Shown: positions 28,094 to 61,646 of the stretch, one piece after another
Layout of the letters: the number at the start of each line of letters is the position of its first letter
Position numbering within the stretch: the first letter of the stretch is position 1
Assembly: GCA_041686375.1 (NCBI GenBank)
Contig: JAWLEB010000009.1
Span: forward strand, 12,424 to 76,423
Direction: 5' to 3'
Length of the DNA stretch: 64,000 nt
Source: Bacteroidales bacterium
Lineage (GTDB): Bacteria > Bacteroidota > Bacteroidia > Bacteroidales > UBA12077
Translations under genes and position numbers: made by a program
The notes under the pieces: model-generated
The model's input: only the letters and a program-made list of their open reading frames with translations
Told to the model about the DNA's origin: nothing
The model's database searches: none

Positions 28094-28143
28094 ATGTTAT
28101 TTTTATAACACTGTTAAAATATTAACAATTAATTTTATATTTG
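28094..28143 (+). promoter_or_regulatory. two abutting Rex-like operators plus a -7 box in the sucC / hydrogenase-1 divergent promoter region
   Basis: ATGTTA-TTTTTA-TAACAC (28094-28111) and CTGTTA-AAATAT-TAACAA (28111-28128) compare with the consensus TTGTTA-N6-TAACAA. TATATTTG (TAnnTTTG) is at 28136-28143. Confidence 0.5.
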
Positions 28144-28189: not shown

Positions 28190-28588
28190 ATGGCAAAAAT
28201 CAAGTCGTTAGAAGACCTCAAAAAAAGGAAACAAGATCTGCAAAAGAAAGTAGATCTTAGAGAGCGTGCCGACCATTCTGAATCCTATGTTCAGATTAAG
28301 GTTGGGATGGCTACGAGTGGAATCGCTTCAGGAGCAAAAGAAATTCTGGATTTTCTTATCGATACTCTTGAAAAACGTAACATTGAAGCTATTGTCACAC
28401 AGGCTGGTGACATGGGATATAGCTTTGCAGAACCTACTATTGAAGTGACAAAACCGGGTGAAGAACCTGTGGTTTTTGGTTATGTTGATCGTGAAAGAGC
28501 TGATGAAATCATTGAAAAGTATATAAAACGAGGTGAGCTGGTCGACGGAATCATCCCACAAAATTACCGAACTATTGATGACGAATAA
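28190..28588 (+). CDS. thioredoxin-like [2Fe-2S] ferredoxin-fold protein with no cysteines
   Basis: 132 aa. It aligns with Trx-like Fd domains (VGMATSGIASGAKE...AGDMGYSFAEPTIEV), but Ser, Asp and Ser occupy the usual Cys positions. There are no Cys residues in the whole ORF. Confidence 0.6.
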   Translation: MAKIKSLEDLKKRKQDLQKKVDLRERADHSESYVQIKVGMATSGIASGAKEILDFLIDTLEKRNIEAIVTQAGDMGYSFAEPTIEVTKPGEEPVVFGYVDRERADEIIEKYIKRGELVDGIIPQNYRTIDDE

Positions 28589-28609
28589 AGACATAGGAGG
28601 AGTAATAAT

Positions 28610-30403: not shown

Positions 30404-30412
30404 TTATAGAAG

Positions 30413-32188: not shown

Positions 32189-32218
32189 TTTGAATAAAAA
32201 CATAGGAGGATCAAATCC

Positions 32219-32710
32219 ATGTCCAGAATAAAAGTAAAAATAAAAGAACAGGATCTCAAAAAGATACAGGAGATCTGTGCTGAACATAGCTACCAACCTG
32301 GTGAACTCATCAATATTCTTCAGAGAGCGCAGGAACATTTTGGGTATTTACCTGCTGAAATTCAGGAAGTTGTTGCTAATGAGCTGAAAATTTCTGTAGC
32401 GAAAGTATATGGTGTCGTGACTTTTTATTCATTCTTCACAATGATACCCCAGGGAAGGTATCCGATATCAATATGCACTGGCACAGCTTGTTATGTAAGA
32501 GGTGCGGATAATGTTTTACAGGAATTTAAACGAAAGCTCAATATTGAAGTCGGACAAAGTACAGAGGATGGTAAATTTTCAATTAATTGCTTAAGATGTG
32601 TGGGTGCATGTGGATTAGCCCCCGTAGTACAGGTAGGAGATAAAACATACGGACGCGTTGCCCCGGATGATGTAGAGGGCATTATTGAAGAATATAAAGA
32701 TAAAGAATAG
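32219..32710 (+). CDS. hydC: [FeFe]-hydrogenase gamma subunit, NuoE-like [2Fe-2S] protein (locus 1)
   Basis: 163 aa. CTGTACYV...CLRCVGACGLAP gives the NuoE CX4C...CX3C pattern. Confidence 0.85.
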   Translation: MSRIKVKIKEQDLKKIQEICAEHSYQPGELINILQRAQEHFGYLPAEIQEVVANELKISVAKVYGVVTFYSFFTMIPQGRYPISICTGTACYVRGADNVLQEFKRKLNIEVGQSTEDGKFSINCLRCVGACGLAPVVQVGDKTYGRVAPDDVEGIIEEYKDKE

Positions 32711-41726: not shown

Positions 41727-41918
41727 CTATTTTTTAAATCTACCCATCAGTTCTGTTTTTTCAATACTGTGTTGTTCTACTTTTTTATCAAATGCTTCCA
41801 TGCTGTTGATTTCTCCCAGTGATTCAACATCAAGGGCATAGAGTCTGAAGTAGTACCTGTGCTCACCGGAAGGCGGGCACGGACCTCCATAATCTTTTTT
41901 ACCAAAATTATTTTTTCC
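41727..41918 (-). pseudogene. C-terminal remnant of a YbhB/YbcL (PEBP) family gene
   Basis: The minus strand reads GKNNFGKKDYGGPCPPSGEHRYYFRLYALDVESLGEINSMEAFDKKVEQHSIEKTELMGRFKK*, which matches the PEBP C-terminal half (compare E. coli YbhB ..FGKTGYDGAAPPKGETHRYIFTVHALD..). It has no start codon and no N-terminal half. It abuts the stop codon of the phosphatase gene in the same frame. Confidence 0.75.
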
Positions 41919-43103
41919 TTAAAGATATTTCAGTGATACCTCTTTTAAAAATTTATTTTCCAGTGTTTGTGCAATTCTTTTGACTACCGTTCTTCGTATT
42001 TCAAGCTCTACAGGTAGGTTGGGATCCTGGTGTGCTTCGTTAATGCGTGTTCCGATAATAAAATGAATTTCATCACTTTCAACAAGTTGCTTGACAATTT
42101 GGTCGGCAGGCCCCTTTTTAAGTGGATAGTTGCTGTTGTATTCATTAAGCATTTCAGCTACTTTGCTAAGTGTTAATATTCCTTCAGTAACTAAATCAAT
42201 ATTATGCATGTAAGATACAGGAGGCAGGTCAGGATCTTCAAATTCAAAGCTATCTTCTATTTCCAGGTTGAGTTCACGGGCAATAATATCTGCAGTTGTT
42301 GCTCCCGAAATAATTTTTCTGCCTTCAAAATTTTTTACTTTTCGTGCTAGCTCTTTATCTTTTTCATTTTCAAAAGGAGGACCGCTGCACAATAAAAGTT
42401 TTCTCGGTTCTCTGAAATATATAACCCCGCAGCTACTATCATCCTTGGCAAAATAACCATCATTTTTGTATGCAACGTTAATTGCTTTATGTGCGAGTTT
42501 AGAAGCGGATAAATCAGGGTTGTTTTTGACCAGCCTTTTTACGAAATCCTGGAAGTTTTCCTGCCCCCAACCGAAAGGATATTTGTCTGTTCCTAATCCT
42601 GACTGGATTATGCCGTCTGAGGAAAAGATAATGCGATCTTCTTTTTGGGGTTTTATATGGCAGGTTTTGAGTTTTTTTCCCTTATGTCTGTCGCTTTGAA
42701 GCGTGATACTTTTCCATTCCGGGCGAAAGATTTTTTCGCCTCTTAAGATAATTGTTTGTGGATTGTCATACTCCAGAATTGTTGTATCGCCATTATAATC
42801 AACGTCTATGATTGTGAAAGTCGCATAGCTTATTCTTCTTTTATTGTCTTCCGGCAGTGTGTTCATAATGATTTCGGCAATCGTCTGAACGTCCTTGTGT
42901 TCTTTGGTAAAGTTTATGGCCATTGTGGCAGTTAAGGTAGCAAGAACGTTTGCCTTTACACCATGGCCTAAACCATCGGAAAGAACCAGTATCAACCTGT
43001 TTTCTTCCTTAATTTTCTCCGAAAGAAAAACATCACCGCAAATGCGTTCTTCTTCATGGCTTTTTTGTTTTATGCCGACTTCTATATGAAAATCCTGATT
43101 CAT
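41919..43103 (-). CDS. PP2C/SpoIIE-family protein phosphatase with an uncharacterised C-terminal domain
   Basis: N-terminal CGDVF...VLSDGLGHGVKA...FSSDGI motifs of SpoIIE/PP2C. It overlaps hydS by 4 nt. Confidence 0.75.
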   Translation of the reverse strand: MNQDFHIEVGIKQKSHEEERICGDVFLSEKIKEENRLILVLSDGLGHGVKANVLATLTATMAINFTKEHKDVQTIAEIIMNTLPEDNKRRISYATFTIIDVDYNGDTTILEYDNPQTIILRGEKIFRPEWKSITLQSDRHKGKKLKTCHIKPQKEDRIIFSSDGIIQSGLGTDKYPFGWGQENFQDFVKRLVKNNPDLSASKLAHKAINVAYKNDGYFAKDDSSCGVIYFREPRKLLLCSGPPFENEKDKELARKVKNFEGRKIISGATTADIIARELNLEIEDSFEFEDPDLPPVSYMHNIDLVTEGILTLSKVAEMLNEYNSNYPLKKGPADQIVKQLVESDEIHFIIGTRINEAHQDPNLPVELEIRRTVVKRIAQTLENKFLKEVSLKYL

Positions 43104-44962
43104 TTTTTCTTTTTCTTATCGGATTGATAAAATTCTATGATTGAATTGAGCATTTGTTCGGTTTCAGAAGCCCCTTCACCCAGCAGATAGCCTATTTTTT
43201 GAACCATCTCAAGATTTTTATCAATGGCTTCAGTCACCCTTTTGATAACCTGCTCTTTTCTGATTTCAGGGGAATACATATCTCTGAATACAGCACCAAC
43301 AATCTTTCCTTTTCGGATTGTAAAAATTGACAGATTTAATAATTTGTCCTCAAAATGTATATCTCTATTGACAATGTTTTGGTGATTTTTTAATACATGT
43401 GAAAAGAGGTTGTAAACGTTATGTGGCAGGAGCGTTTTCAAATCTGCGCCAACCAGCCCGGGGATAACTTCATTGATTGATTCGGCTTCTTCTCCGAGAT
43501 ATTCTATAAAAGTCTCATTGGACTGGATGATTTTCATTTCTTTGTCGATGATAACCACAGCAGAAGGAAGTTTTTGCAGCATTGCATTGATGGTTTCCGA
43601 AGCTTCCTTGGCAGTTTGTTTCTCTTTCCTGGCCTTTTGTTCTGATTCCTTAAGTTTTGTTTGCGTTTGAGAGAGCTTCTCATTTGTTGTTCGCAGTGCT
43701 TTAATGTATTCATGACGATTGCGCAGCGTATAACTCAGGCACATCTCAGTTTTTGCAAGTCCTTTGGAAACGGCAATTGCAAAATCCCGGCACGATGGAT
43801 ATCCGCATGCTCTGCATCCACTATTGACATCTGAGTTTTCTTTGCCTATGGCCTTTAGAACTTCCTGTATTTTTTCTTCTGAAGGAGTCTCAATGCGTTG
43901 ATCGTTTTCATGGAAATCCCGGGTAAAATCCATTTCCATGTATCTTTCTATTTCTTCTTTCCATTGATCATAATTAAAATTTTTCAGTCGCTTATTGACA
44001 TAATCGATTACCCTTGAACGACGCAGGAATTTTTTTCCGCCCGGAGATGTACCCGGACCCATTATGCAGCCCTCGCAGTAGAATAGATTAAAGTGTCGCT
44101 TAATCTGCACTATGTTTTGATCAAATTGCCTGGCTGCATTTAACATGCTTTTTTTCCCTTCGGCTGTAGTAACCGTTCCTTGAAGTAAACTTTCACTAAT
44201 GTCTGCTGCTTGCAGAATTCCATTGCTTATTGGGAACAGAGACCCTTTATAGCCAATGGGAGAGTCAAAGTCAGAATACTCCAGTCTGCTCTCCTGAATA
44301 TTGAATTCCCTGAACAGCTCTCTGAGTTCAACAAAGGTCAGTACGGAGTCAATTTTCCGGTTACCATCATATAAGTTTGCTTCGTCCTTTGAATCCAAAC
44401 ACGGACCAATATATACCACATGGATATTTTCGCCATATAGTTTTCTTACCACCATTGCAGTGGCTACCATGGGAGACACCAGTGGAGCAAGATTATTAAC
44501 CAGATCAGGATGGAATTTTTCTATGAAGGCAACAACAGCAGGACAATTAGAAGTGATATAATATTTGCCCCTGAAAGACTCAAAGAGTTCTTTATACTTT
44601 AAGGCTACCAGATCGGCTCCGAAAGATACTTCATTTACCTTGTCAAATCCCAGTTGCTTGATCATCTGGACGAATTTCCGGTAGTCTGTAATATCATCAA
44701 ACTCACCGGAGATACTTGGAGCTACTATGGCTACTTTTTGCTTGTCCGAGCTCAGGAGTTTTTTTGTTTCTTCTTTAGAATTTTTATAAACAATGGCATT
44801 TTCCGGGCATGCACGTATGCAGCTTCCGCATGCAATGCATCGTTCCGGGATTATTCTTGCATAATCTTTGTTAACCTTAACTTCTATGGCATTAACGGGG
44901 CATTCTCTGACACAGGAATAGCTAAGGTTGCATCTTTCTTTAATGATTTGGACTAGTGACAT
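43100..44962 (-). CDS. hydS: sensory-type [FeFe]-hydrogenase-like protein with a C-terminal PAS domain
   Basis: Two ferredoxin CX2CX2CX3CP motifs. The H-domain motifs are altered (TSNCPAV, IGPCLDSKDE, FYCEGCIMGPG). It also has an extra CRACGYPSC...C motif, a coiled linker and a PAS-like C-terminus. Confidence 0.75.
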   Translation of the reverse strand: MSLVQIIKERCNLSYSCVRECPVNAIEVKVNKDYARIIPERCIACGSCIRACPENAIVYKNSKEETKKLLSSDKQKVAIVAPSISGEFDDITDYRKFVQMIKQLGFDKVNEVSFGADLVALKYKELFESFRGKYYITSNCPAVVAFIEKFHPDLVNNLAPLVSPMVATAMVVRKLYGENIHVVYIGPCLDSKDEANLYDGNRKIDSVLTFVELRELFREFNIQESRLEYSDFDSPIGYKGSLFPISNGILQAADISESLLQGTVTTAEGKKSMLNAARQFDQNIVQIKRHFNLFYCEGCIMGPGTSPGGKKFLRRSRVIDYVNKRLKNFNYDQWKEEIERYMEMDFTRDFHENDQRIETPSEEKIQEVLKAIGKENSDVNSGCRACGYPSCRDFAIAVSKGLAKTEMCLSYTLRNRHEYIKALRTTNEKLSQTQTKLKESEQKARKEKQTAKEASETINAMLQKLPSAVVIIDKEMKIIQSNETFIEYLGEEAESINEVIPGLVGADLKTLLPHNVYNLFSHVLKNHQNIVNRDIHFEDKLLNLSIFTIRKGKIVGAVFRDMYSPEIRKEQVIKRVTEAIDKNLEMVQKIGYLLGEGASETEQMLNSIIEFYQSDKKKKK

Positions 44963-44988
44963 ATATCTTATTGTTAATATCTTCTTTT

Positions 44989-45258
44989 TTAGAGGTATTT
45001 ATGGAAAATTTCGTCCAGGATATTTATAAGCCTGTCGGAATTTACTTCTGTGTATATTTTGTTTTCAAATTTAATAACGGGGCCTTCATTGCATTTATTG
45101 ACGCAGTGCGTACCGCAAAAGTGCACTTTATCTTCCAACTGATGCTCTTTTATGTAATTTTTTATAACCTGGACAGCTTCCTTGTTGCCTCTGGAAAAGC
45201 AAGCGCTCCCTAAACAAATTATAAGTTCCTTTTTATGGATTTTGTTTCTCTCTGACAT
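44989..45258 (-). CDS. thioredoxin-like [2Fe-2S] ferredoxin
   Basis: 89 aa. ICLGSACFSRG...FCGTHCVNKCNEGP gives the CX3C...CX3C pattern of Trx-like Fd. It is the first gene of the hydS operon. Confidence 0.7.
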   Translation of the reverse strand: MSERNKIHKKELIICLGSACFSRGNKEAVQVIKNYIKEHQLEDKVHFCGTHCVNKCNEGPVIKFENKIYTEVNSDRLINILDEIFHKYL

Positions 45259-45287
45259 AGGTTGAAAATCTAAATGAATAAAATTAG

Positions 45288-45402
45288 GAAACTGTTTTGA
45301 TTTTGTCCTGCTTTAACAAATTAGTTTTATTTATAGCCCCCTGTGGTAAAGCCTAATTATCTGTTCGATTTCTAAAAATTTGGTAAAGCAAAATTTCTAA
45401 AA
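45288..45402. repeat. 115-nt bipartite element, copy 1 (conserved 21-nt and 28-nt ends, unrelated 66-nt centre)
   Basis: GAAACTGTTTTGATTTTGTCC (45288-45308) and AAAATTTGGTAAAGCAAAATTTCTAAAA (45375-45402) recur identically at 62186-62206 and 62273-62300 with the same spacing. Confidence 0.7.
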
Positions 45403-45443
45403 TAATAGTTTTTATAAAACTAAACAATAATTTATTATTTTTA

Positions 45444-45496
45444 TTGTTATAAAATTAACAATGTTTGCAAAATAACAATATATTTTTGTAATTTTG
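45444..45496 (+). promoter_or_regulatory. Rex-like operator abutting a Bacteroidota-type promoter of hydrogenase locus 2
   Basis: TTGTTA-TAAAAT-TAACAA (45444-45461) has perfect half-sites. TTTG is at 45464-45467 and TAATTTTG is at 45489-45496, 21 nt apart. The hydC ATG is at 45514. Confidence 0.55.
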
Positions 45497-45513
45497 TACG
45501 ATTAATATTATTT

Positions 45514-45975
45514 ATGAAAACAATTGCGAAAATAATAGAAAATTATCCATTTGCCCGGAGGGAAAACTTAATTCCTATACTTCAGGATATACAGGATGAA
45601 TACGGATACCTGACGGAAGATGCTATTAAAGAACTTGGAAAATTCCTTGATGTTCCGACAAGTAAAATATACAGCCTGGCAACATTTTACAGTAAGTTCA
45701 GATTTCATCCGGCAGGGACATATCATTTGAAATTATGCCGCGGCATCTCATGCCATTTAAAGGGTTCTACAAATATTTTGAACGCTATAGAGCAGAAGTT
45801 GGGCATTCAAGATGGTGAATCAACACCTGATGGGCTCTTTAGTCTTGAAGTTGTTGCATGCATGGGGGCATGTGCATTTGGACCTGTTTTGAAAATTAAT
45901 GAGTACTATTATACTGAAATGGATGAAGATCGCCTCGATGAAATTATTGAATATTATAAAGAATACGAAGAGTAA
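45514..45975 (+). CDS. hydC: NuoE-like [2Fe-2S] hydrogenase subunit (locus 2)
   Basis: 153 aa. LCRGISCH...ACMGACAFGP. Confidence 0.85.
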   Translation: MKTIAKIIENYPFARRENLIPILQDIQDEYGYLTEDAIKELGKFLDVPTSKIYSLATFYSKFRFHPAGTYHLKLCRGISCHLKGSTNILNAIEQKLGIQDGESTPDGLFSLEVVACMGACAFGPVLKINEYYYTEMDEDRLDEIIEYYKEYEE

Positions 45976-45981
45976 AAATTT

Positions 45982-47928
45982 ATGGAAACAGTAGGTCCTT
46001 CAACATATAAAGATGTATTGATTAATGAAATCTTAGGTCAACCACAGGAAAAGATTAATCAATATCAAAATATTCTTGAAAAAATTTTACGGAACAAAAT
46101 TGATAGAACCTGTATTTCATTAACTTATACATCTTCCAGTATCATTGCCGGAGCAAAGGAGTCTTTTAAGACTATTGATACCTATCTTGAAGAAAGGGAC
46201 ATGGATGTGGATCTTTTTAAAGTTGGTTCAACCGGTTTATGTGCATTAGAACCATTTATGGAGGTTCAGTTACCGGGTAAAGCCAAAATTCTCTTTTCCA
46301 GGGTTACCGCTGATAAAGTTAATCATATTCTGGATGCTGTTTTTAATAGCTATTTGCCAGAAGAAAATGTGTTTGGGCAATATGAAAATAAATTGCATGA
46401 ACCTTGGGAAAATGTGCCGTACGTCCATGAGCATCCGTTTTTTGCAGGACAAAAACGATATATTCTTAAAAACTGCGGAATAATAAATCCTGAGTCGATT
46501 AATGAATATATTGCCGGGGGTGGTTATCAAAATTTTATGAAGACTATCCGAAATTATACGCCAGAAGAAATATGTGATTTGATAACCAATGCTGAACTAA
46601 GAGGCAGAGGAGGAGAAGGATATCCAACCGGGAAGAAATGGAAAAATACTTTGAATACATCCGGAGAACAGCGTTATCTTATTTGTAATGCCGGTGAAAG
46701 CGATCCCGGTGCATTCATGGAACGTACAATAATGGAAAGTGATCCGCATAATGTTATAGAATCGGTTGCTATTGCTTCATATGCTGTTGGTGCTCAAAAG
46801 GCAATTGTGTATCTGGAGTCGGAATATGATTTGGCCTATAAGAGATTGAGCAAAGCGATAGAACTTGCTAAATCATGTGGAATACTGGGACATGATATTT
46901 TCAATAGCGGATTTAGTTTAAATATAAGTATTTTCAGGGGAGCTGGCGCTTATGTTTGTGGTGAGGAAACGGCCTTAATTGCCAGTATGGAGGGGAAGCG
47001 GGGGATGCCAAGAACCAAACCGCCTTATCCTTCTCAAAAGGGTTTTACAGGCCAACCGACTGCATTAAATAATCTGGAAACATTATTAAATGTTCTTGTT
47101 GTTCTGAAGAATGGACCGGATAGGTACAAAGAGACAGGTACAGAAAACAGCAGGGGAACTAAAATCTTTTCATTATCAGGAAATATTGAGCGCACGGGTA
47201 TGATTGAAATACCTATGGGAAAGCCGATACGTGACATTATCTATAAAATTGGTGGTGGTTTACCGGATTATAGTGAGTTGAAAGGGGTCCTTGCAGGAGG
47301 TCCGGCAGGAGGAATTATAAAATACGAACATCTTGATACCCAGATTGATTATAAGAGTATAAGAGAGCTTGGATGTTCTCTGGGTTCAGGGGGATTGGTG
47401 GTGCTGGATCAAAACAATTGCATTATTGATACAGTAAAATATTATATGAGCTACCTGGAACAGGAGAGCTGTGGTAAATGTATTCCCTGCCGGGAAGGAA
47501 CAGCACGGATGCATGAGATTCTGGAAAACATTTCAAAAAAGCCACAGGATGAGAATGGTCATACTACCCTTCAGCGTTTTAAAGGCGTCATGCATCTCGA
47601 AAAGCTTGCGGAGGTTATCAGGGATACATCATTATGCGGTCTCGGGCAAAGAGCTGCAAATCCGGTTCTATCCACATTGCGCTGGTTCAGGGATGAATAT
47701 GAAGAGCATATATTTGACAGAAATTGTCAAGCTGGCATTTGTCGGGATTTAAGAACATATTACATCGATGTGGATAAATGTACCGGCTGTGCTATTTGTG
47801 CCAAGAAATGCCCGACAGGGGCAATATTTGGAACATTGAAAAAGGCTCATTTCATTGTACAGGAAAAGTGTATTGGCTGTGGTGAATGTTATGAGGTATG
47901 CAAGTTTAATGCTATTATCACTCAATAA
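45982..47928 (+). CDS. hydB: NuoF-like hydrogenase flavoprotein subunit, divergent (locus 2)
   Basis: GRGGEGYPTG, CNAGESDPGAF (NADE changed to NAGE), ESCGKCIPCR...LCGLGQ, and two C-terminal ferredoxin motifs. The N-terminal Trx-like domain keeps only 2 of 4 Cys. Confidence 0.8.
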   Translation: METVGPSTYKDVLINEILGQPQEKINQYQNILEKILRNKIDRTCISLTYTSSSIIAGAKESFKTIDTYLEERDMDVDLFKVGSTGLCALEPFMEVQLPGKAKILFSRVTADKVNHILDAVFNSYLPEENVFGQYENKLHEPWENVPYVHEHPFFAGQKRYILKNCGIINPESINEYIAGGGYQNFMKTIRNYTPEEICDLITNAELRGRGGEGYPTGKKWKNTLNTSGEQRYLICNAGESDPGAFMERTIMESDPHNVIESVAIASYAVGAQKAIVYLESEYDLAYKRLSKAIELAKSCGILGHDIFNSGFSLNISIFRGAGAYVCGEETALIASMEGKRGMPRTKPPYPSQKGFTGQPTALNNLETLLNVLVVLKNGPDRYKETGTENSRGTKIFSLSGNIERTGMIEIPMGKPIRDIIYKIGGGLPDYSELKGVLAGGPAGGIIKYEHLDTQIDYKSIRELGCSLGSGGLVVLDQNNCIIDTVKYYMSYLEQESCGKCIPCREGTARMHEILENISKKPQDENGHTTLQRFKGVMHLEKLAEVIRDTSLCGLGQRAANPVLSTLRWFRDEYEEHIFDRNCQAGICRDLRTYYIDVDKCTGCAICAKKCPTGAIFGTLKKAHFIVQEKCIGCGECYEVCKFNAIITQ

Positions 47929-47939
47929 AAAAGCTGAGA

Positions 47940-49664
47940 ATGTACATTGATATAGAAGTAAATAATAAAACAATTCATGCAAAAAAGGGAGATACCATCT
48001 TAGAGGCATTACGGGAAAACGGCATCTACGTTCCTACCCTTTGTAACTTAAGCGAATTTTCACCGACTGGGGCATGCCGGTTATGTGTTGTTGAGGTTGA
48101 GGGGAAAGAGCGACTTGTTACAGCCTGCAGTTATCCCATTGAGGAGTGGTTAAGAATTAGAACGCATTCTCCACGGGTGATAGAAGCAAGAAGAATGATT
48201 GTGGAACTATTGCTGTCTAATCATCCTGAGGATTGTCTCTATTGTGAAAGAAACAATAAGTGCGAACTGCAGAAACTTGCACAGGAATTGAATTTGCGCG
48301 AAAGACGAATTACCGGAAAGAAAAATAGGGGCAAACTTGACCTTTCCAGTCCCGGTTTGGTGTATGAGCCTGCCAAGTGTGTCCTTTGTGGCCGATGTGT
48401 CAGAGTATGTGAGGGAAAAGAACGCGTATCAACACTTGAATTTACCGGAAAGGGGAATTTTACTTCCATTTCAACTACCATGAAGAAGGATTTGAATTTT
48501 TCCAATTGCTTACATTGTGGACAATGCATACTTGTTTGTCCCACAGGAGCTTTGCAGGAAAAATCCTATTTTGAACCTATACAGGAGGCACTTTCTAAAG
48601 AAAATGTTACTGTGGTTGCCCAATATAGTCCGTCAGTTGCTGTATCTCTTGCTGATGGATTTAATATGCGCTCGGGAAAAGATATGTCTGGGTTAATAAA
48701 TAGTGCATTACGAAAAATAGGATTTGATAAAATTTTTGACAATAGTTTTGGAACTGATGTTTATCTCATTGAAGAGGCTGCAGAATTAGCTAACAGAATG
48801 GATAAAGAAGAAAACTTACCTATGCTGAGCAGCTCTTGTCCTGCCTGGATAAAATACATGGAACAAGCGCATCCTGATCTTTTATCGTTCATTTCCACGG
48901 TTAAATCACCTGAGCAGTTAACCGGATCACTCATAAAGCAATATTGCCTTGATAGTGAAGATAGAGCGAATAATGATATTTTTACAGTTGCTATAGTCCC
49001 GTGTCCGGCTAAAAAATTTGAGGCGCAGCGGGAGGAAATGACAAATAAAGGAATTTCCGATATTGATGCCGTGATGACTACCCACGAATTAGCCAGATTA
49101 ATACAGCTTTATGGAATTGATATTGAGAATATTGATCCGGAAGAATCGGATAAGCCTTTTAATATCAGTAGTTCTTCTGCTAAGTTACCGGCAGCAATAG
49201 GGGGAACTTCCGAAGCGCTTTTAAGAACCATCAATTATAATCTGACGAACAAAGATCTATCTTCGGCTAAAATTTCAAAGCTACGGGGGAGTAAAGAGAT
49301 GAAACAAACAAAATTAATTATAGAAGATAGAACAATAAATGTGATTTCTGTCAGTCCTATTGCCAATATTGAGAAACTAGTGGACGAGATACGAAAAAAT
49401 GACTCAGAGTATCAATATATTGAAGTTATGGCTTGTCCGGGTGGCTGTGTGAATGGAGGCGGACAGCCTGTTCTAAAAAACATTAAGAATCTACGCGACA
49501 GAATTAAAGCCGTGCAGAATATTGATGAGAAAAGTTCTCAGCGTTTTGCACACAGAAATACAGGTGCCTGGCGTTTTATTGAAGAAAAATTTGAAAAACC
49601 TTATAGCGAAACAGCATTAAAAATATTGCATACCCACTATTCAAAAAGGGATGTGTTATTGTGA
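47940..49664 (+). CDS. hydA: [FeFe]-hydrogenase-like large subunit, M3 architecture, with non-canonical H-cluster environment (locus 2)
   Basis: Full N-terminal FeS motifs. L1 is LSSSCPAW (Ser299 codon TCT at 48834-48836), L2 is IVPCPAKKFE (Val353 codon GTC at 48996-48998), and L3 is canonical (EVMACPGGCVNGGGQP). Confidence 0.8.
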   Translation: MYIDIEVNNKTIHAKKGDTILEALRENGIYVPTLCNLSEFSPTGACRLCVVEVEGKERLVTACSYPIEEWLRIRTHSPRVIEARRMIVELLLSNHPEDCLYCERNNKCELQKLAQELNLRERRITGKKNRGKLDLSSPGLVYEPAKCVLCGRCVRVCEGKERVSTLEFTGKGNFTSISTTMKKDLNFSNCLHCGQCILVCPTGALQEKSYFEPIQEALSKENVTVVAQYSPSVAVSLADGFNMRSGKDMSGLINSALRKIGFDKIFDNSFGTDVYLIEEAAELANRMDKEENLPMLSSSCPAWIKYMEQAHPDLLSFISTVKSPEQLTGSLIKQYCLDSEDRANNDIFTVAIVPCPAKKFEAQREEMTNKGISDIDAVMTTHELARLIQLYGIDIENIDPEESDKPFNISSSSAKLPAAIGGTSEALLRTINYNLTNKDLSSAKISKLRGSKEMKQTKLIIEDRTINVISVSPIANIEKLVDEIRKNDSEYQYIEVMACPGGCVNGGGQPVLKNIKNLRDRIKAVQNIDEKSSQRFAHRNTGAWRFIEEKFEKPYSETALKILHTHYSKRDVLL

Positions 49665-51664
49665 TGCAAAAAGATGTGCCAAATACAGAAAGAGAATTGG
49701 TTCATACGATAAAGAATCGTTGTAGAGTGTGTTATACATGTGTGAGGGAATGTCCGGCCAAAGCTATTAAAATCATTAATGGACAGGCTGAGATTCTTAA
49801 TGAAAGATGTATAGCATGTGGAAACTGTATAAAGGTATGCAGCCAGGGTGCAAAAATGTTTATCGATACAACCTCTCACCTGGAAGGAATTTTGAGTAAC
49901 GGGAATAAAAATATTGCCATTCTTGCCCCAAGTTTTCCGGCTGAATTTTCCGATATTCCGAACTACAGAGATTTAGTGTCTATGATTCGTGCCCTGGGTT
50001 TTGATGTTGTCTCTGAAGTAGCTTTTGGAGCTGATTTGGTTGCAATGGAGTACAATAAATTGATACGCAATAACAACAACAAACGGTATATTTCTTCTGA
50101 TTGTCCGGCGATTGTCCAGTACATCGAAAAATATCATCCAGAAATAGTGCCTAACCTTGCTCCTGTAGCTTCTCCTATGATAGCTATGAACCGGGTTATG
50201 AGGGCAAAATATGGAACAAATACCAATGTGGTTTTTATTGGTCCATGTATTGCGAAAAAAGCTGAATGTGACGAGGTTGACGAAATGGTAACCTTTGCTG
50301 AGTTAAGAGAAATTTTTGAACAAAAAGATATCGTTCCCGGGCAACAGGAACCTTCAGATTTTGATCCGCCTAAAAGTGGAAGAGGCGCTATATTTCCTGT
50401 GAGCAGAGGGTTGTTGCAAACAACGGGAATAAAGGATGATGTCTTTGACGGGAATATTATTGTTGCTGAAGGACGCAATGATTTTCAGGAGGCGATTAAG
50501 GAGTTTGAAACCGGACATATTAAATCAAGACACCTTGAGTTGTTATGCTGCGAAGGATGTATTGTTGGGCCCGGAACCACAAAAGGTGGAAGACCCTATG
50601 GACGAAGAATTCTTGTGCATAATTATGTTCAGGAAAAGATAGATAACTTTGATAAAGATGAATGGAAAAAGTATGTTGCAGAATGTAAAGATTTAGATCT
50701 TAGTGTTGGTTTTACGGAAAATGATAAGCGTATCTCATATCCAACAGAGCAAGAGATTGAGAAAGTTCTGAGATCAATGGGTAAAAAAGAAGCTAAAGAT
50801 CATCTCAATTGTGGCGCTTGTGGTTATGATACCTGTGAGGAGCATGCTATTGCTATTGTAAAAGGTTTGGCGGAAAATGAAATGTGTTTGCCTTATACCA
50901 TTGAAAAATTACATAATTCTGTAAATGAACTTGCTGTTTCTAATGAGAAGTTAATGTCTATGCAGCAGGCATTACGTCAGTCTGAAAAAATGGCAAGTAT
51001 GGGGCAATTATCGGCAGGCATAGCTCATGAATTAAATAATCCACTGGGAGTTGTGATTATGTATGCCAACATCCTGCTTGAAGAAGTACCGGAAGATTCA
51101 GAGTTATATAATGACTTGAAGCTTATAGTTGAACAGACCCATCGATGCAAAAAGATTGTGGGAGGACTGTTGAATTTTGCACGTAAAAATCAGGTTTCAA
51201 GAACTGAAGTAGATACTGTGCAACTCATTGAAAATAGCTGTGATGCGGTTATTGTTCCGGATAATGTAAAAATGGTTGTGAAAACAGATAATTTGAATGG
51301 TCGGAAAGCATATCTCGATCAGGAGCAGATGACGCAAATTTTAACCAATTTGATAAAGAATGCTATTGATGCTATGCCTGACGGTGGTAAGCTTACCATT
51401 GAACTGGCAGATGATGAGCATTACACCATTTTCCGGGTACATGACACGGGCAAAGGAATCAAACCCGCGGATAAGGAGAAAATATTCGAACCTTTTTATA
51501 CCACAAAAGGTATAGGGGAGGGAACAGGTCTGGGGTTAGCTACAGCTTATGGGATTGTGAAAATGCATAAAGGAAAAATTACCGTGGATTCAAATGATAA
51601 TAAGGAGAATGGCCCTACAGGTACTACTTTTACAGTAAAGTTACCCAAGTTTCAGGAGAATTAA
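49664..51664 (+). CDS. sensory-type [FeFe]-hydrogenase-like domain fused to a histidine kinase
   Basis: Two ferredoxin motifs and altered H-domain motifs (SSDCPAI, IGPCIAKKAE, LLCCEGCIVGPG). Then CGACGYDTC...C, the HisKA H-box GIAHELNNPLG, and HATPase_c boxes (NLIKNAIDA, DTGKGI, GTGLGL). The ATG overlaps the hydA stop (TGATG). Confidence 0.8.
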   Translation: MQKDVPNTERELVHTIKNRCRVCYTCVRECPAKAIKIINGQAEILNERCIACGNCIKVCSQGAKMFIDTTSHLEGILSNGNKNIAILAPSFPAEFSDIPNYRDLVSMIRALGFDVVSEVAFGADLVAMEYNKLIRNNNNKRYISSDCPAIVQYIEKYHPEIVPNLAPVASPMIAMNRVMRAKYGTNTNVVFIGPCIAKKAECDEVDEMVTFAELREIFEQKDIVPGQQEPSDFDPPKSGRGAIFPVSRGLLQTTGIKDDVFDGNIIVAEGRNDFQEAIKEFETGHIKSRHLELLCCEGCIVGPGTTKGGRPYGRRILVHNYVQEKIDNFDKDEWKKYVAECKDLDLSVGFTENDKRISYPTEQEIEKVLRSMGKKEAKDHLNCGACGYDTCEEHAIAIVKGLAENEMCLPYTIEKLHNSVNELAVSNEKLMSMQQALRQSEKMASMGQLSAGIAHELNNPLGVVIMYANILLEEVPEDSELYNDLKLIVEQTHRCKKIVGGLLNFARKNQVSRTEVDTVQLIENSCDAVIVPDNVKMVVKTDNLNGRKAYLDQEQMTQILTNLIKNAIDAMPDGGKLTIELADDEHYTIFRVHDTGKGIKPADKEKIFEPFYTTKGIGEGTGLGLATAYGIVKMHKGKITVDSNDNKENGPTGTTFTVKLPKFQEN

Positions 51665-51798
51665 GCATAAAATGTATAATAATAAACTAGATCAAAATCA
51701 AAATAAGAGGTGATAATTTTATTATACAGAGTTTTTCAGGAAAATATTACCTTAATCGATAAGAATCATGGAAAACCGATCCATAAAAAACCAAACAT

Positions 51799-52191
51799 AT
51801 GACGGAAGAAAAGACGATATTAGTTGTTGATGACGATATTGATTACCTTTTTCAGATGGAGTTAATGCTCAAGAATATGGGGTATAATGTTCTTAAAGCA
51901 GAAAGCCAGAAAGAGGGTGAGCAAATTCTGGAATCGAACCGGCCGGATTTGGCTATTTTTGACTTGATGATGGAGACTGAAGACAGTGGTTTTGTTTTGA
52001 GTTATAAGGCAAAAAAGAAATATCCGGATATGCCTGTAATCATAGCTACTGCTGTGGCTTCTGAGAGAGGTATTTCTTTTGGACTCAACAGTGTAGAAGA
52101 AAAAACATGGATCAAGGCCGATGCATATCTTGAAAAGGGAGTACGAAAAGAACAATTACAAAACGTCATTGAAAAGTTATTGGATAAATGA
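51799..52191 (+). CDS. stand-alone response-regulator receiver protein
   Basis: 130 aa. VVDDD, phospho-acceptor context IFDLMM, and a conserved Lys (LEKG). No output domain. Confidence 0.8.
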   Translation: MTEEKTILVVDDDIDYLFQMELMLKNMGYNVLKAESQKEGEQILESNRPDLAIFDLMMETEDSGFVLSYKAKKKYPDMPVIIATAVASERGISFGLNSVEEKTWIKADAYLEKGVRKEQLQNVIEKLLDK

Positions 52192-53321
52192 AGAAATTAA
52201 AAGTTCTTGTGGTAGATGATGAACCTGGTATTTGTGCGGGTGTAAAGCGTATTTTGAATAAATTCACTGTAAGTTATCCATTTATGGATGAGGATCACGG
52301 GTTTGAAGTTTATGAATCATATACGGGGGAGGAGGCTATTGAATACATTATAAAAGACCCACCGGATATTCTGCTTTTGGATAACAAATTGCCCGGTATT
52401 CAGGGAACAGAAGTGCTTGAATATGTGAATAATAATAATCGTAATATTGTTGTAATGATTATAACTTCTTATGCATCTCTTGAACTGGCTGTAAAGGCAA
52501 CGAATGAGGGAGCGTATGATTTTATACCGAAGCCTTTTACGCCCCAGGAATTGAAATCTTCTATGGAAAATGTTACCAAACATCTTTTCCTTCGTTCAAT
52601 GACGCAAAAATTGAATAAAGAAGGCAAGGAAGTGAGGTTTCAGTTTCTCTCGGTTCTCTCTCATGAGTTAAAATCTCCCCTGAATGCCCTGGAGGGTTAT
52701 CTGAATATTATGAAGGAAAGGCAGGCAGGAGAAGAAATTTCTAATTACGATCAGGTTATTGATCGCTCCTTGCAAAGGATGAAAGGAATGCGTAACTTAA
52801 TTATGGATTTACTGGATCTTACCAAAATAGAATTTGAAAAGAAGGAGGATAAGTTTGAATCGGTTAATCTTAACCAGCTTGCTCAAAGCGCTGTAGAGTC
52901 TATGAAACCCTACGCTATACAGAAAGATGTTACAGTGGAAATCCATGGGGGAGATAACATATACCTGGATGCAGACCCCGGAGATATTGAAATTGTAATG
53001 AATAATCTGGTATCCAATGCCGTGAAGTATAATAAGGAACGTGGAAAAGTTGATGTTCACATCAAACAAAAAGATAACGATATAATTGAGATTCGGGTGG
53101 ATGATACAGGTATTGGAATGAATAAGGAAGAAATTCAAAAATTATTCAATGAATTTTACAGGGCAAAAAATGAGAAAACCCGCCAAATTACGGGAAGTGG
53201 ATTAGGATTGCCTATAGTTAAAAAGGTAGTTGATTTATACCATGGAGAAATAAAAGTTAACTCTAAACCGGATATGGGAAGTACATTTATTGTTTATTTG
53301 CCAGCAAAGTCTAATATGTAA
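52188..53321 (+). CDS. hybrid receiver / histidine kinase (REC-HisKA-HATPase_c)
   Basis: N-terminal REC (VVDDEP..LLLDNKLPG..PKPF), H-box LSHELKSPLN, and boxes NLVSNAVKYN, DDTGIGM, GSGLGLPIV. Its ATG overlaps the upstream TGA by 4 nt (ATGA). Confidence 0.8.
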   Translation: MKKLKVLVVDDEPGICAGVKRILNKFTVSYPFMDEDHGFEVYESYTGEEAIEYIIKDPPDILLLDNKLPGIQGTEVLEYVNNNNRNIVVMIITSYASLELAVKATNEGAYDFIPKPFTPQELKSSMENVTKHLFLRSMTQKLNKEGKEVRFQFLSVLSHELKSPLNALEGYLNIMKERQAGEEISNYDQVIDRSLQRMKGMRNLIMDLLDLTKIEFEKKEDKFESVNLNQLAQSAVESMKPYAIQKDVTVEIHGGDNIYLDADPGDIEIVMNNLVSNAVKYNKERGKVDVHIKQKDNDIIEIRVDDTGIGMNKEEIQKLFNEFYRAKNEKTRQITGSGLGLPIVKKVVDLYHGEIKVNSKPDMGSTFIVYLPAKSNM

Positions 53322-53371
53322 ATAATTTAATATATTGCCCTGTCAAATCTGTATATTTAAAATTGAATATT

Positions 53372-54022
53372 ATGAAAACACTTCCGGAAAAGACAATAGA
53401 AAGACTGAGTGTCTACAGAAGAAGCTTATTGAATTGCTATTCCGATGGTAAAGAATATATCTATTCGCATGAGCTTGCAAATTTGCATAATATAACTTCA
53501 GTGCAGGTTAGGAGAGATTTAATGTTGATAGGCTATTCTTCAACACTAAAAAAAGGATATGATGTGAAAGCCTTGATTGATCTTATAGGTCAGATTCTGG
53601 ATTCACCAAATGGGTTGAATGTTGCTGTGGTAGGTGTAGGAAACTTAGGACGTGCGATTACTACTTATTTTAGAGGCAAAAGATCAAAACTGCAAATTGT
53701 AGCTTCGTTTGACACGGATCCGGAGAAAATCAATAGTGTGATTTCAGGTGTAAAATGTTACTCCATGAAAGAGCTGGAAACAATCATCAGGGAAAAAAAT
53801 ATTTCGGTTGCAATTTTAACTGTGCCTCCTGAATATGCCAATAGTGTTGCAGAACTGCTTGCGCAAAGTGGGATAAAAGGTTTATTAAATTATACTTCTG
53901 TCCCTGTTAAGGTTTCGACTGACATTGTTTTGGATGATTATGATATGACAATGTCTCTGGAGAAAGTTGCATATTTTGTAAAACAAAAGGCTGATGAAGA
54001 GAGTTTGAATGAGTTGAAATAA
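53372..54022 (+). CDS. rex: redox-sensing transcriptional repressor Rex
   Basis: N-terminal winged helix (IERLSVYRR.L) and a Rossmann motif VAVVGVGNLGRA. About 215 aa. The ORF is open from TTG 53363. Confidence 0.85.
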   Translation: MKTLPEKTIERLSVYRRSLLNCYSDGKEYIYSHELANLHNITSVQVRRDLMLIGYSSTLKKGYDVKALIDLIGQILDSPNGLNVAVVGVGNLGRAITTYFRGKRSKLQIVASFDTDPEKINSVISGVKCYSMKELETIIREKNISVAILTVPPEYANSVAELLAQSGIKGLLNYTSVPVKVSTDIVLDDYDMTMSLEKVAYFVKQKADEESLNELK

Positions 54023-54160
54023 TATCGCGTTTAGCGAATATTGAAAGCAAAATGATCCCTGATTCATATGGATTGTATAAAAGACGATCAATAAAGCCAT
54101 ACCTGTCGGCAGACCATACAGAGGGTTTCATTTAACCATTAATTGATAAAAGACAAACGA

Positions 54161-55093
54161 ATGCAAATATATCGAACTTTTGATATAAAGGGTAAGATAA
54201 AAAATCCGGTTGTTACAACAGGCTCGTTTGATGGAGTCCATATCGGACACAAGGCTATCCTCCAGCGCCTTAGAAATATTGCAAATGAAATAGACGGGGA
54301 GACCGTCTTAATTACGTTCTATCCTCATCCGAGAAAAGTACTCTATCCTGAAACGCACGGGAAAAATCTGAAGCTTATAAACACACAGAAGGAAAAAATA
54401 TATTTACTGGAACAAACTGGTCTTGATCATCTCATTATCATCAATTTTACCAGAGAATTTGCAAAAACTACATCTTATCAGTTTGTAGAAGACATACTTG
54501 TTGATAAGCTTAACGCAAAGCGTATAATTGTTGGCTTTAACCATCATTTTGGCCATAACAGAGAGGGAGATTATGATTATCTGTATGAACTGGCTAAACA
54601 TCATGATTTTGAAGTAGAAGAGATTCCGGAGCAGGATGTGGAAAATGAAACGGTGAGTTCAACAACTATCCGGAAATCACTGGCGGAAGGTAAAATTCAA
54701 AGGGCCAATGCTTACCTTGATCATTTCTATATCATTATCGGTAAGTTAAAGGACGGACATCCAAAATACAGGGAAATTGGTTTCCCAACTTATGAGGTTG
54801 AAATTGAAGAAGAGGAAAAGCTTATTCCCAGCGAGGGAGTCTATGCTGTCAGTATGAGGCATGATAAAGGACGACATAAAGGGATGCTTTATATAAAGCA
54901 ATATCCGGAAAGAAAAAAACTGACTGCAGAAGTTCATCTTTTCGGATTAGACCACGAATTTGATTTTAGAGGACAGATAGTGAATATAAGGTTTCATAAA
55001 AAAATACGAGATGAGCTAAACTTTAGCAATACGGAAGATCTTCATAAGCAGTTGAATATGGATATGCAGAATATTAAAAAATTAATTTTTTAA
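54161..55093 (+). CDS. ribF: bifunctional riboflavin kinase / FAD synthetase
   Basis: GSFDGVHIGH, and the riboflavin kinase C-terminal motifs. The ORF is open from TTG 54143. Confidence 0.85.
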   Translation: MQIYRTFDIKGKIKNPVVTTGSFDGVHIGHKAILQRLRNIANEIDGETVLITFYPHPRKVLYPETHGKNLKLINTQKEKIYLLEQTGLDHLIIINFTREFAKTTSYQFVEDILVDKLNAKRIIVGFNHHFGHNREGDYDYLYELAKHHDFEVEEIPEQDVENETVSSTTIRKSLAEGKIQRANAYLDHFYIIIGKLKDGHPKYREIGFPTYEVEIEEEEKLIPSEGVYAVSMRHDKGRHKGMLYIKQYPERKKLTAEVHLFGLDHEFDFRGQIVNIRFHKKIRDELNFSNTEDLHKQLNMDMQNIKKLIF

Positions 55094-56677: not shown

Positions 56678-56822
56678 TGAAACCCTCATCCACTACCGTG
56701 GACAAAAGTCTGTGTATGAAGCATAAGGGTTCCATGGGATGCAGAGTGAACTTACGTTGACTTTTGTAGCAATAAGTCTCATAGTATGAAACTAATAACC
56801 TGACTTTATTTAAATGAAAAAT
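56678..56822 (+). repeat. 145-nt repeat, copy 1 (candidate structured RNA)
   Basis: Gap-free match to 61660-61804, about 84 percent identity by hand count. It overlaps the last 5 codons and the stop codon (17 nt) of the CHAT gene on the opposite strand. Confidence 0.75.
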
Positions 56823-60920: not shown

Positions 60921-61646
60921 ATGTTAAAAACAGAAAAAAGGTTTTTGATAACACAACCGAATACAGTCTCAGAAAAAAAATTCTTGTCTTATGTTTCCCA
61001 TAGAATAAGAACTCCATTGAATTCAGTAATTGGATTTTCAAAGTTGCTTCTCAATAAAGATTGCTCTGATGAAAAAGTTGAAGATTTCGCAGATAAAATT
61101 TTAAGTAGTGGGTATGAAATATTGCATTACTTTCAAAATATTATGGATCTTTCCGAAATGGAGACAGATATTGTCAATGTAAATCCTGTGAAACTTGATG
61201 CTAAAGATCTTATCCTGAGACTTGTTAGGGAGTATCGGGATCGATTTCAACCAGAACATAATATTGAAATTAAATGTACAGATATCAGAAATTTCAGGAG
61301 TATACCGATTCAATCTGATGATTATATTTTCAGTCGTATACTTGGAAATATAATTGAACTAACCAGAATGATGATTCATGAAGGAGAGATAATCCTTAGC
61401 TGTATTATTAGCCATGATGGATATATACATTTTAGGGTTACTGGAAAATTTAATTCAGTACTTCATGCGGCGGATGAATCACTTATACTGCAAAAAGGAG
61501 AGGATAATGACAGTATAGAGTATTTGACCTATAAGGTAATACGTAATTTTTCAGAATTGCTGGGAGGCACTTTTTCTGCGGCGATAATCGCAGATAATGA
61601 GATTCTTTTCAATTTCATACTTCCTTACCATAGCGCCATAGAGTGA
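60921..61646 (+). CDS. soluble HisKA-domain protein with a degenerate ATPase domain (pseudo-kinase or phosphotransfer protein)
   Basis: The H-box SHRIRTPLNSVIGFSKLL is present. It has no TM or sensor domain. The C-terminal half lacks recognisable DxGxG and GxGLG boxes. Confidence 0.55.
   Translation: MLKTEKRFLITQPNTVSEKKFLSYVSHRIRTPLNSVIGFSKLLLNKDCSDEKVEDFADKILSSGYEILHYFQNIMDLSEMETDIVNVNPVKLDAKDLILRLVREYRDRFQPEHNIEIKCTDIRNFRSIPIQSDDYIFSRILGNIIELTRMMIHEGEIILSCIISHDGYIHFRVTGKFNSVLHAADESLILQKGEDNDSIEYLTYKVIRNFSELLGGTFSAAIIADNEILFNFILPYHSAIE

Follow-up and report, generated by a model that had tools for sequence, protein, structure and literature searches.

A conserved Bacteroidales gene island that combines Rex, two putative hydrogen sensors and a trimeric hydrogenase with a sensor-like active site

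How fermentative bacteria sense molecular hydrogen (H2) and adjust their electron disposal is a long-standing question; sensory [FeFe] hydrogenases have been examined by spectroscopy, but their outputs and roles are unproven. The question bears on a regulatory island in the genome of an uncultured member of the Bacteroidales (GTDB lineage UBA12077), located at positions 41727-54022 of a stretch of 64,000 nucleotides from GenBank assembly GCA_041686375.1 (contig JAWLEB010000009.1, positions 12,424 to 76,423 of the forward strand), hereafter called the window. In this island two divergent operons place two putative sensory hydrogenases (HydS and a hydrogenase-histidine kinase fusion), a PP2C phosphatase, proteins with receiver (REC) domains and the repressor Rex around a trimeric hydrogenase, HydABC. 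A preliminary description made from the sequence alone had pointed out this combination, together with a second trimeric hydrogenase operon 9 kb upstream (28190-32710), the presence of which is upheld by Pfam domains and family score. What, then, is the role of the island hydrogenase beside a canonical one, and do the sensors and Rex belong together? We consider it likely that the island is a conserved Bacteroidales control module for fermentative H2 metabolism, uniting Rex and two sensor candidates with a HydABC that is not the bulk enzyme. Sensor classes of this kind, and the notion that they are linked to trimeric hydrogenases and coupled to Rex, are already established; the main new finding is the sensor-like active site of the island HydA.

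The active site of the island hydrogenase

Both loci encode the three-subunit set of group A3 hydrogenases, namely HydA with a NuoG-like N-terminus and an H-domain, the NuoF-like HydB with flavin mononucleotide, and the NuoE-like HydC. The canonical HydA carries the pocket motifs TSCCPAW, MPCLAKKFE and EIMACPGGC. The island HydA is 36% identical to it, has T. kivui HydA1 as its closest solved structure (8a6t, E 6e-147) and keeps all accessory-cluster motifs. Aligned to 8a6t, it has SSSCPAW in place of TSCCPSW and VPCPAKKFE in place of MPCIGKKFE, corresponding to C299S and M353V in the CpI numbering used throughout, and it departs from the canonical pocket pattern of TSCCPxW, MPCxxKxxE and ExMxCxxGC. 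Its scores fall below the curated cut-offs of both NF040763 (644.7 versus 765) and TIGR02512 (395.7 versus 405.95), both of which the canonical HydA exceeds.

The window copy belongs to a large series of such proteins. Related loci (L001-L082) were compared in a synteny table made by tblastn, presence being judged only where a locus was long enough, and the residues of 78 HydA orthologues were tabulated. In the 51 loci with rex downstream, C300, C355, C499 and C503 are each kept in 51 of 51, whereas C299 is kept in 17 (otherwise Ala, Ser, Asn, Asp, Val or Thr), E279 in 7, E282 in 20, K358 in 24 (often replaced by Met) and M353 in 17 (otherwise mostly Thr). On a neighbour-joining tree built on the kinase fusion, C299 was lost at six or more separate points. 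In the clade whose operon is led by an extra REC gene, E279, E282, C299, K358, M353 and the cluster cysteines are all canonical. The partner subunit follows the same pattern, as the N-terminal thioredoxin-like domain of the island HydB (residues 1-190; 45982-46560), a weak match to PF01257 (E 0.012), keeps one Cys, whereas three are found where the locus has a canonical HydA and the canonical HydB itself has four; the cluster cysteines of this domain are lost in the same lineages as those with HydA erosion, and the core and C-terminal cysteines are all kept. Retention of the ligands together with loss of the proton pathway is known as the hallmark of sensory [FeFe] hydrogenases, and at the level of its sequence the HydA of the rex-linked clade carries such a sensory-like signature, with an eroded proton pathway and invariant ligands. 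Because Ser replaces the relay Cys, Val replaces M353 and the proton pathway is eroded across the clade, H2 turnover by the three-subunit island HydABC is most likely slow, and the complex would be a regulated or regulatory enzyme, not the bulk one. The sensor-like active site thereby strengthens the earlier suggestion that one of the two hydrogenases is “regulated or regulatory.”

It is possible, though doubtful, that the island HydABC is instead a second catalytic (con)bifurcating isoenzyme, for example one biased toward H2 uptake or suited to another H2 pressure, for which the sensors and Rex set the timing and in which the active-site changes tune the catalytic bias without any demotion to a sensor. 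Its full cofactor chain and all H-cluster ligands are kept, its closest solved relative is a true bifurcating HydA1, and M353 is also altered in CpII and CpIII, which are active enzymes. Three further points weigh against a slow or regulatory role: the window HydA is a mild case that retains E279, E282, R286, S319, K358 and M497, the rest of the proton pathway included, and may be competent if slower; TmHydS is active with Ala at the C299 position; and of the 35 loci in which HydS and a downstream rex occur together, 12 keep a fully canonical HydA, so that a sensor-like HydA is not required by the architecture. Asp, found at position 299 of some orthologues, supports activity in prototypical enzymes, but in published mutagenesis replacement of C299 by anything else, C299S, C299A and C299N included, abolished or severely impaired them. 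The loss of K358, E279 and E282 in a large clade is also hard to square with the tuning of a fast catalyst. Moreover, the island subunits evolve faster than the regulators beside them (median identities to the window proteins of 46-52 and 56-62%, respectively) and much faster than the canonical HydA, which is 70-79% identical in the same genomes, compared with a median of 48% for the island HydA; the scores below the curated family cut-offs argue in the same direction.

A bolder interpretation, which we hold to be unlikely, is that the island HydABC has itself become a sensor, as a slow-turnover complex coupled to reduced nicotinamide adenine dinucleotide (NADH) and ferredoxin that would have gained the sensory signature convergently. 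As part of this interpretation, hydA would be translationally coupled to the H-domain kinase gene, the start of which overlaps the hydA stop by 1 nt. That start is the ATG at 49664 in the gene call of the matching metagenome-assembled genome (MAG; GCA_046498195.1, contig JAWOBG010000071.1), and the open reading frame extends further 5′ to a GTG at 49661. If HydABC were a sensor, the cell could measure, with the coupled H-domain kinase, the thermodynamic back-pressure on electron confurcation (H2 versus NADH/NAD+ versus ferredoxin) and not just H2, and the island would hold three H-cluster proteins devoted to regulation.

The HydA orthologues form a natural series that varies at the proton-relay position (Cys, Asp, Ser, Ala or Asn) and in the presence of K358, and the evolutionary gradation from catalytic to sensor-like forms of HydABC could reveal the residues that distinguish catalysis from sensing. 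Automated group A3 gene counts in Bacteroidales metagenomes may include non-bulk, sensor-like enzymes. A separate variant occurs in five loci with non-Bacteroidota labels (L073, L075, L077, L078, and L082; four of them with rex upstream of hydC), where the L1 motif of HydA reads TSCSPGW, in which C299 is kept and C300, a [4Fe-4S]H ligand position, is Ser.

Rex and its operators at two hydrogenase promoters

Rex is a redox-sensing transcriptional repressor that responds to the NADH/NAD+ ratio. The island protein scores 203.6 bits against NCBIfam NF003995 (cut-off 126), contains the Pfam domains Put_DNA-bind_N (PF06971) and CoA_binding (PF02629), and has the Rossmann motif GVGNLG. The operator-like palindrome that had been noted in the shared promoter, TTGTTATAAAATTAACAA at 45444-45461, is supported both statistically and phylogenetically. 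Its core, TGTTA-N6-TAACA, occurs in three exact copies in the 64 kb against 0.15 expected, and none of 100 shuffled sequences reached three. The core of this first box (45445-45460) lies 53 bp before the hydC start codon, and a second box with one mismatch, TGTTTGCAAAATAACA at 45462-45477, follows in 17-bp register, the pair ending 37 bp upstream of hydC. Such boxes are not specific to the shared promoter, as a tandem pair also precedes the canonical operon: two exact boxes, TGTTATTTTTATAACA and TGTTAAAATATTAACA, lie at 28095-28127, again in 17-bp register, and end 62 bp upstream of its first gene. The full motif TTGTTA-N6-TAACAA is found in the window only at these two hydrogenase promoters. 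Since tandem exact boxes adjoin the canonical operon too, Rex probably controls both hydrogenase loci, as predicted from the boxes. Judged by eye, TAnnTTTG motifs follow the boxes by 4-12 bp at both promoters; we take TAnnTTTG to be the Bacteroidetes -7 promoter consensus, which, if right, fits repression by occlusion. Other Rex-like sites of the window with a single mismatch (9009, 10479, 23232, and others) were discarded, being next to unrelated genes and near chance expectation.

Among the related loci, an exact box within 300 bp of hydC is present in 34 of 42 with rex downstream and in none of the 16 that lack rex in cis (Fisher p = 9e-9, for loci that are related by descent and hence not independent samples), and box density is 1.99 per kb upstream of hydC versus 0.011 per kb elsewhere in the loci, where the few boxes present are not randomly placed. 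In eight loci (L013, L014, L015, L022, L030, L032, L054, and L068) an extra exact box sits between the kinase fusion and REC, at about +6150 to +6870 from the hydC start, which suggests a separately Rex-controlled sub-operon of REC, REC-kinase and rex in some lineages; the corresponding 134-bp gap of the window (51665-51798) contains no Rex box. The idea that loci without rex in cis also lack the box was overturned, as six of them (L045, L051, L053, L056, L060, and L063) carry a Rex-like box upstream of the leading extra REC gene, four exact and two with one mismatch, some with a TGTGAAA half-site. Because of these six loci, Rex-type control seems ancestral to the whole family.

Several observations weigh against so broad a role for Rex and against the island as one unit of control. 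Eight loci that encode rex have no exact box near hydC. The boxes in the shared promoter are about 185 bp from the minus-strand start codon, leaving control of the HydS operon in doubt. A scan of the window for sigma-70 promoters and intrinsic terminators gave counts no higher than in shuffled sequence and did not delimit transcription units, and co-transcription is suggested by short gaps and overlapping genes alone. An Rfam scan of the whole window gave no match, and the 255-bp intergenic region is not explained by a riboswitch or other known RNA.

The sensor candidates, their outputs and the conservation of the island

The putative sensory classes of [FeFe] hydrogenase have been described as having two N-terminal [4Fe-4S] motifs, an H-domain with the cluster ligands and a C-terminal Cx2Cx4Cx16C motif, in the absence of the proton-relay Cys (C299 of CpI) and the remaining proton pathway. 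M353 is replaced by Gly, Ser or Thr (published frequencies 51, 32, and 17%, respectively), and group C contains a PAS domain. HydDB defines C1 as histidine kinase-linked and C3 as phosphatase-linked, with both labelled putative. The two island proteins share one layout, consisting of two [4Fe-4S] motifs (Fer4-family matches at residues 5-58 of HydS and 18-64 of the kinase fusion), H-domain, Cx2Cx4Cx16C (PF04060) and coiled coil, followed by a putative PAS domain in HydS and by HisKA and HATPase, without PAS, in the kinase fusion. The motifs are TSNCPAV, GPCLDSKDE, FYCEGC, and CRACGYPSC-x16-C in HydS and SSDCPAI, GPCIAKKAE, LCCEGC, and CGACGYDTC-x16-C in the kinase fusion. Their conservation is good among 39 HydS sequences and strong among 83 kinase-fusion sequences, and the kinase H-box AGIAHELNNPL is kept in 83 of 83. 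The position of M353 is Gly (GPC) in both sensors and throughout both families. At C299, HydS has Asn and the kinase fusion Asp, the latter shared by about 70 of the 83, and an alignment by BLAST to the canonical HydA, read by eye, further shows E279, E282, and S319 of the kinase fusion replaced by Tyr, Leu, and Ala. Up to the coiled coil before the output module, the two are 43% identical over 470 residues, while each is only about 26% identical to group A HydA; they are paralogues whose outputs have been swapped.

These features bear out in large part the assignment of the preliminary description, in which the sensors were the kinase-linked and phosphatase-linked types of group C. HisKA and HATPase_c lie in the same polypeptide as the H-domain in one, as in C1, and the HydS-PP2C gene pair, conserved in 37 loci, corresponds to C3, so that architecture and neighbourhood fit the definitions of the kinase-linked type for the fusion and of the phosphatase-linked type for HydS. 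Two points count against the picture of H2-sensing proteins of this class. The C-terminal region of the window HydS matches PAS_8 at E 7e-4, below the Pfam gathering score, so that the PAS call for this copy is below threshold; and no in vivo experiment shows H2 sensing by any group C protein. PAS_8 matches all nine HydS orthologues tested (best E 2.7e-7), which is the usable evidence for the domain, and a profile search of the HydS region against the PDB gave the Aer2 PAS domain as its sole, weak match (E 0.077). When both sensors were compared with PDB sequences, the matches were confined to generic kinases and to [FeFe] hydrogenases of group A or unspecified group, with no structure of group C or D among them.

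It could be supposed that the H-domain proteins are iron-sulfur redox, oxygen or carbon monoxide sensors, possibly without the [2Fe] subcluster, which report the state of ferredoxin or of cellular redox to the kinase relay and the phosphatase. H2 sensing by group C is putative, each protein has three accessory [4Fe-4S] sites, one of them a C-terminal cluster next to the output module, HydS has no Lys at the K358 position, C499 is missing in 3 of 39 HydS orthologues, and the window is without maturase genes. All four H-cluster cysteines (one in L1, one in L2, two in L3) are nevertheless present in both window sensors, L2 with K358 and Asp at 299 are highly conserved across the 83 kinase fusions, and TmHydS and TamHydS have been shown to bind the H-cluster and to react with H2 in vitro. 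As for maturation, 44 of the 82 related loci have a hydG-like gene within 10 kb and 32 have a hydE-like radical SAM gene, and the canonical HydA means that the genome needs maturases anyway. We give this explanation little credence. For the window itself, the earlier remark that hydE, hydF and hydG are missing holds true, since tblastn with maturase-like genes from a related locus found no match; a Pfam scan, which covered only part of the open reading frames of at least 150 residues, also revealed no maturase.

The features of both operons are compiled in Table 1. The ten genes of the island have the domains, order and strands first described, the open reading frames and Pfam being in agreement, except that the supposed relay of three kinase or receiver proteins counts two kinases and two receiver domains.

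Table 1. Features of the island, of its 3′ flank and of the canonical hydrogenase operon, in coordinates of the window.
Feature	Position	Strand	Evidence or remark
Thioredoxin-like protein, 132 aa	28190-28588	plus	no Cys, no Pfam match
Canonical hydB	28610-30403	plus	Pfam domains
Canonical hydA	30413-32188	plus	NF040763 892 vs cut-off 765
Canonical hydC	32219-32710	plus	Pfam domains
PP2C phosphatase, 394 aa	41919-43103	minus	Pfam SpoIIE E 3e-12
HydS-like putative sensory [FeFe] hydrogenase, 620 aa	43100-44962	minus	Pfam domains and motifs
Thioredoxin-like [2Fe-2S] ferredoxin, 89 aa, leads minus-strand operon	44989-45258	minus	PF01257 E 8e-9
Tandem Rex operator-like boxes, shared promoter	45444-45477		TTGTTATAAAATTAACAA and TGTTTGCAAAATAACA
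hydC, NuoE-like [2Fe-2S] subunit, 153 aa	45514-45975	plus	PF01257 E 1e-50
hydB, NuoF-like flavoprotein subunit, 648 aa	45982-47928	plus	Complex1_51K, NADH_4Fe-4S, two Fer4
Divergent hydA, 574 aa	47940-49664	plus	group A3-type architecture intact
H-domain-HisKA-HATPase kinase fusion, 666 aa from ATG	49664-51664	plus	Pfam domains
Single REC response regulator, 130 aa, no output domain	51799-52191	plus	PF00072 E 2e-15
REC-HisKA-HATPase protein, 377 aa	52188-53321	plus	Pfam domains
rex, 219 aa	53363-54022	plus	NF003995 and Pfam
ribF, FAD synthetase/riboflavin kinase	54143-55093	plus	Pfam domains

The PP2C start overlaps the end of the HydS gene by 4 bp, as the REC-kinase gene does the REC gene. 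The hydC product scores 153.9 bits against NCBIfam nuoE_fam (cut-off 142.4), and the cysteines of the ferredoxin, read from the sequence, form a Cx4C...Cx3C pattern. In the canonical operon, the leading 132-residue protein is homologous to the N-terminal domain of histidine kinase-linked HydB (blastp E 8e-13 to that of L062). Further downstream of the island are a 937-residue TPR-CHAT protein (56806-59619) and a 241-residue HisKA-only open reading frame (60921-61646), and far upstream, apparently unrelated to the island, a 480-residue protein with an adenylate/guanylate cyclase catalytic domain (11844-13286).

On the output side, an alignment-based AlphaFold model of the PP2C protein (predicted local distance difference test score, pLDDT, 85) and Foldseek assign its N-terminal domain to the partner-switching type of RsbU, RsbX and SpoIIE, with PDB matches to 3pu9 (E 2e-12), SpoIIE 5mqh and the RsbU domain of Rv1364c. 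Its C-terminal alpha/beta domain of 160 residues (about 235-394) matches no Pfam family, nor does Foldseek offer a convincing PDB counterpart, and the label “TusB/DsrH,” attached by the Joint Genome Institute (JGI) to some homologues, is not supported. This highly conserved domain may be a regulatory or partner-binding module of the HydS-linked phosphatase. Among the Pfam matches and open reading frames of the locus there is no HfsC-like Ser/Thr kinase and no STAS-domain partner. The REC-HisKA-HATPase protein is, from its domain order, presumably a kinase controlled by its own receiver domain. A search for the output of the relay found no DNA-binding response regulator, and the extra upstream REC protein of other loci is likewise without an output domain.

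The synteny comparison that the preliminary description had proposed was made, and the locus is strongly conserved; what had appeared as a singular case is a widespread Bacteroidales module. Among the best 120 matches listed, relatives of the kinase fusion are full-length and 61-100% identical, and every organism-named entry is Bacteroidales or Bacteroidota. A scan of species-representative genomes yielded at least 553 relatives, of which the best 80 loci all come from MAGs, most of them labelled Bacteroidales or Bacteroidota. A cultured host was sought in these best 80 and in the source names from three protein searches, and only MAGs were found, the one locus with the label “Bacteroides sp.” leading to no named isolate; a link to the low-activity A3 enzyme of B. 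thetaiotaomicron was sought as well and could not be established. The core of hydC, hydB, hydA, kinase fusion, REC and REC-kinase is present in every related locus long enough to show it, including a few labelled Planctomycetes, Myxococcales or Phycisphaerae. Where a locus reaches far enough, REC almost always adjoins the kinase fusion, the exceptions being L078, where it precedes the fusion, and L061, where it is missing; the REC-kinase gene and the position of the ferredoxin gene are conserved as well. Since 37 of 58 assessable loci carry the divergent ferredoxin-HydS-PP2C operon, the two-sensor form is the majority state among close relatives. The place of rex varies by lineage: in the nearest Bacteroidales group, rex and then ribF follow downstream, an order kept in most related loci; in non-Bacteroidota loci rex lies upstream of hydC; and in another Bacteroidales clade it is absent from the locus and an extra 165-residue REC-only gene leads the operon. 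The position of ribF directly 3′ of rex in most related loci may link flavin supply to the flavoprotein hydrogenase. In four loci the PP2C gene has the canonical hydA-hydC genes as its immediate neighbours.

One could still argue that the HydS-PP2C and kinase operons are independent modules that share an intergenic region, co-located by accident and uncoupled from each other and from Rex. The HydS-PP2C operon is absent from 21 of the 58 assessable loci while the core persists, and the Rex boxes are near hydC and far from the minus-strand start codon. Against this stands the divergent arrangement itself, which persists across loci whose kinase fusions are 52-77% identical, along with the conservation of PP2C (median identity 62%, among the highest in the island) and the almost exclusive occurrence of HydS with a downstream rex, both being present in 35 loci compared with two that have the downstream rex and no HydS. 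The arrangement is not due to chance, and the explanation of independent modules appears improbable to us.

A working model and comparison with known systems

A conserved control module of this kind could operate as follows. Rex would bind the tandem TTGTTA-N6-TAACAA operators at the promoters of both the canonical hydBAC and the island operon, and would release both when NADH rises, as suggested by the operators and by the known behaviour of Rex. Since the island operon (hydCBA, kinase fusion, REC, REC-kinase, rex) includes rex, the repressor would control its own gene and those of the relay. The kinase fusion and HydS may signal H2, or a redox state linked to it, each through an output of its own. 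The former would autophosphorylate and transfer the phosphate to the single REC or the REC-kinase receiver, or to both, and the HydS-PAS protein would control the adjacent RsbU/SpoIIE-type PP2C. The targets of these outputs would lie elsewhere in the genome or among proteins, because no DNA-binding output is encoded in cis. With its electron-transfer chain intact, the island HydABC would be a slow enzyme in a regulated or regulatory role, and the main H2 flux would fall to the canonical HydABC 9 kb away. The island is conserved in dozens of species-level Bacteroidales genomes, and both sensors, Rex with its operators and the HydA variants can be studied there in one comparable context.

The preliminary description knew of no characterised case with both sensor types in one locus, or of any in Bacteroidota. 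As a claim of novelty this was overstated, in that parts of the arrangement have been noted in Elusimicrobia and Firmicutes; the two-sensor form itself was not found in the searchable literature, which also held no description of back-to-back sensor types or of a REC/REC-kinase relay in this setting, of a Bacteroidota Rex operator variant at both operons, or of natural proton-pathway erosion in an A3-type HydA. In groundwater Elusimicrobia, a trimeric group A enzyme is encoded beside a group C hydrogenase fused to a kinase-ATPase, with Rex nearby, and the loci of lineage V were related by the authors to Ignavibacterium album and Caldithrix abyssi. There the trimeric enzyme is directly downstream of the group C gene, whereas in the island the kinase fusion follows hydA, and the accessible portion of that text makes no mention of a second PAS/PP2C sensor, a REC/REC-kinase relay, operators or HydA erosion.

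In comparison with the group C proteins HydS (M2f) and TmHydS, the island sensors share the two [4Fe-4S] motifs, the ligating cysteines, Cx2Cx4Cx16C and the lack of the relay Cys and proton pathway. As in TmHydS, M353 is replaced by Gly, and HydS has a putative PAS domain; as elsewhere in group C, a kinase is fused or a PP2C adjacent, and the location is beside a trimeric group A enzyme. The island differs in uniting both subtypes in one locus, where they stand back to back and are paralogues of 43% identity, in a kinase fusion without PAS and with Asp at C299, and in a HydS without Lys at K358. This likeness is one of sequence features and definitions, and the hosts of the island are uncultured Bacteroidales.

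In Thermoanaerobacterium, the hfsABCD operon comprises hfsA, encoding a small Fe-S protein, hfsD, encoding a PP2C phosphatase, and a gene for the HfsC-like Ser/Thr kinase, and in Ruminococcus albus the hydABC cluster also encodes Rex. The minus-strand operon of the island differs from hfsABCD in having three genes only and no HATPase_c_2-type kinase. Unlike the R. albus hydS model and the hfs operon, the island has a PP2C with an extra C-terminal domain of 160 residues without known family, a second sensor with a two-component relay, rex in last place among the regulator genes of the hydrogenase operon, and Rex operators before both operons. HydS with a kinase or phosphatase, and Rex, are known in Firmicutes.

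Rex is known to control hydrogenase-related genes in Caldicellulosiruptor bescii, and the experimentally described Rex operators in the literature found come from Firmicutes and Actinobacteria, with TTGTGAAW4TTCACAA as the established sequence. As in the Gram-positive regulons, the operators of the window are 18-bp palindromes of 7-4-7 geometry with TTGT...ACAA ends at hydrogenase promoters; they differ in the half-site, TTGTTAW in place of TTGTGAA (position 5), in their tandem 17-bp pairs and in their Bacteroidota host.

Finally, the island hydrogenase resembles the group A3 HydABC enzymes of T. maritima, T. kivui and A. woodii in its three subunits and their cofactor motifs, and is set apart from them by C299S and M353V, by loss of the N-terminal [2Fe-2S] site of HydB, by a HydA below the family cut-offs and by erosion throughout the clade.

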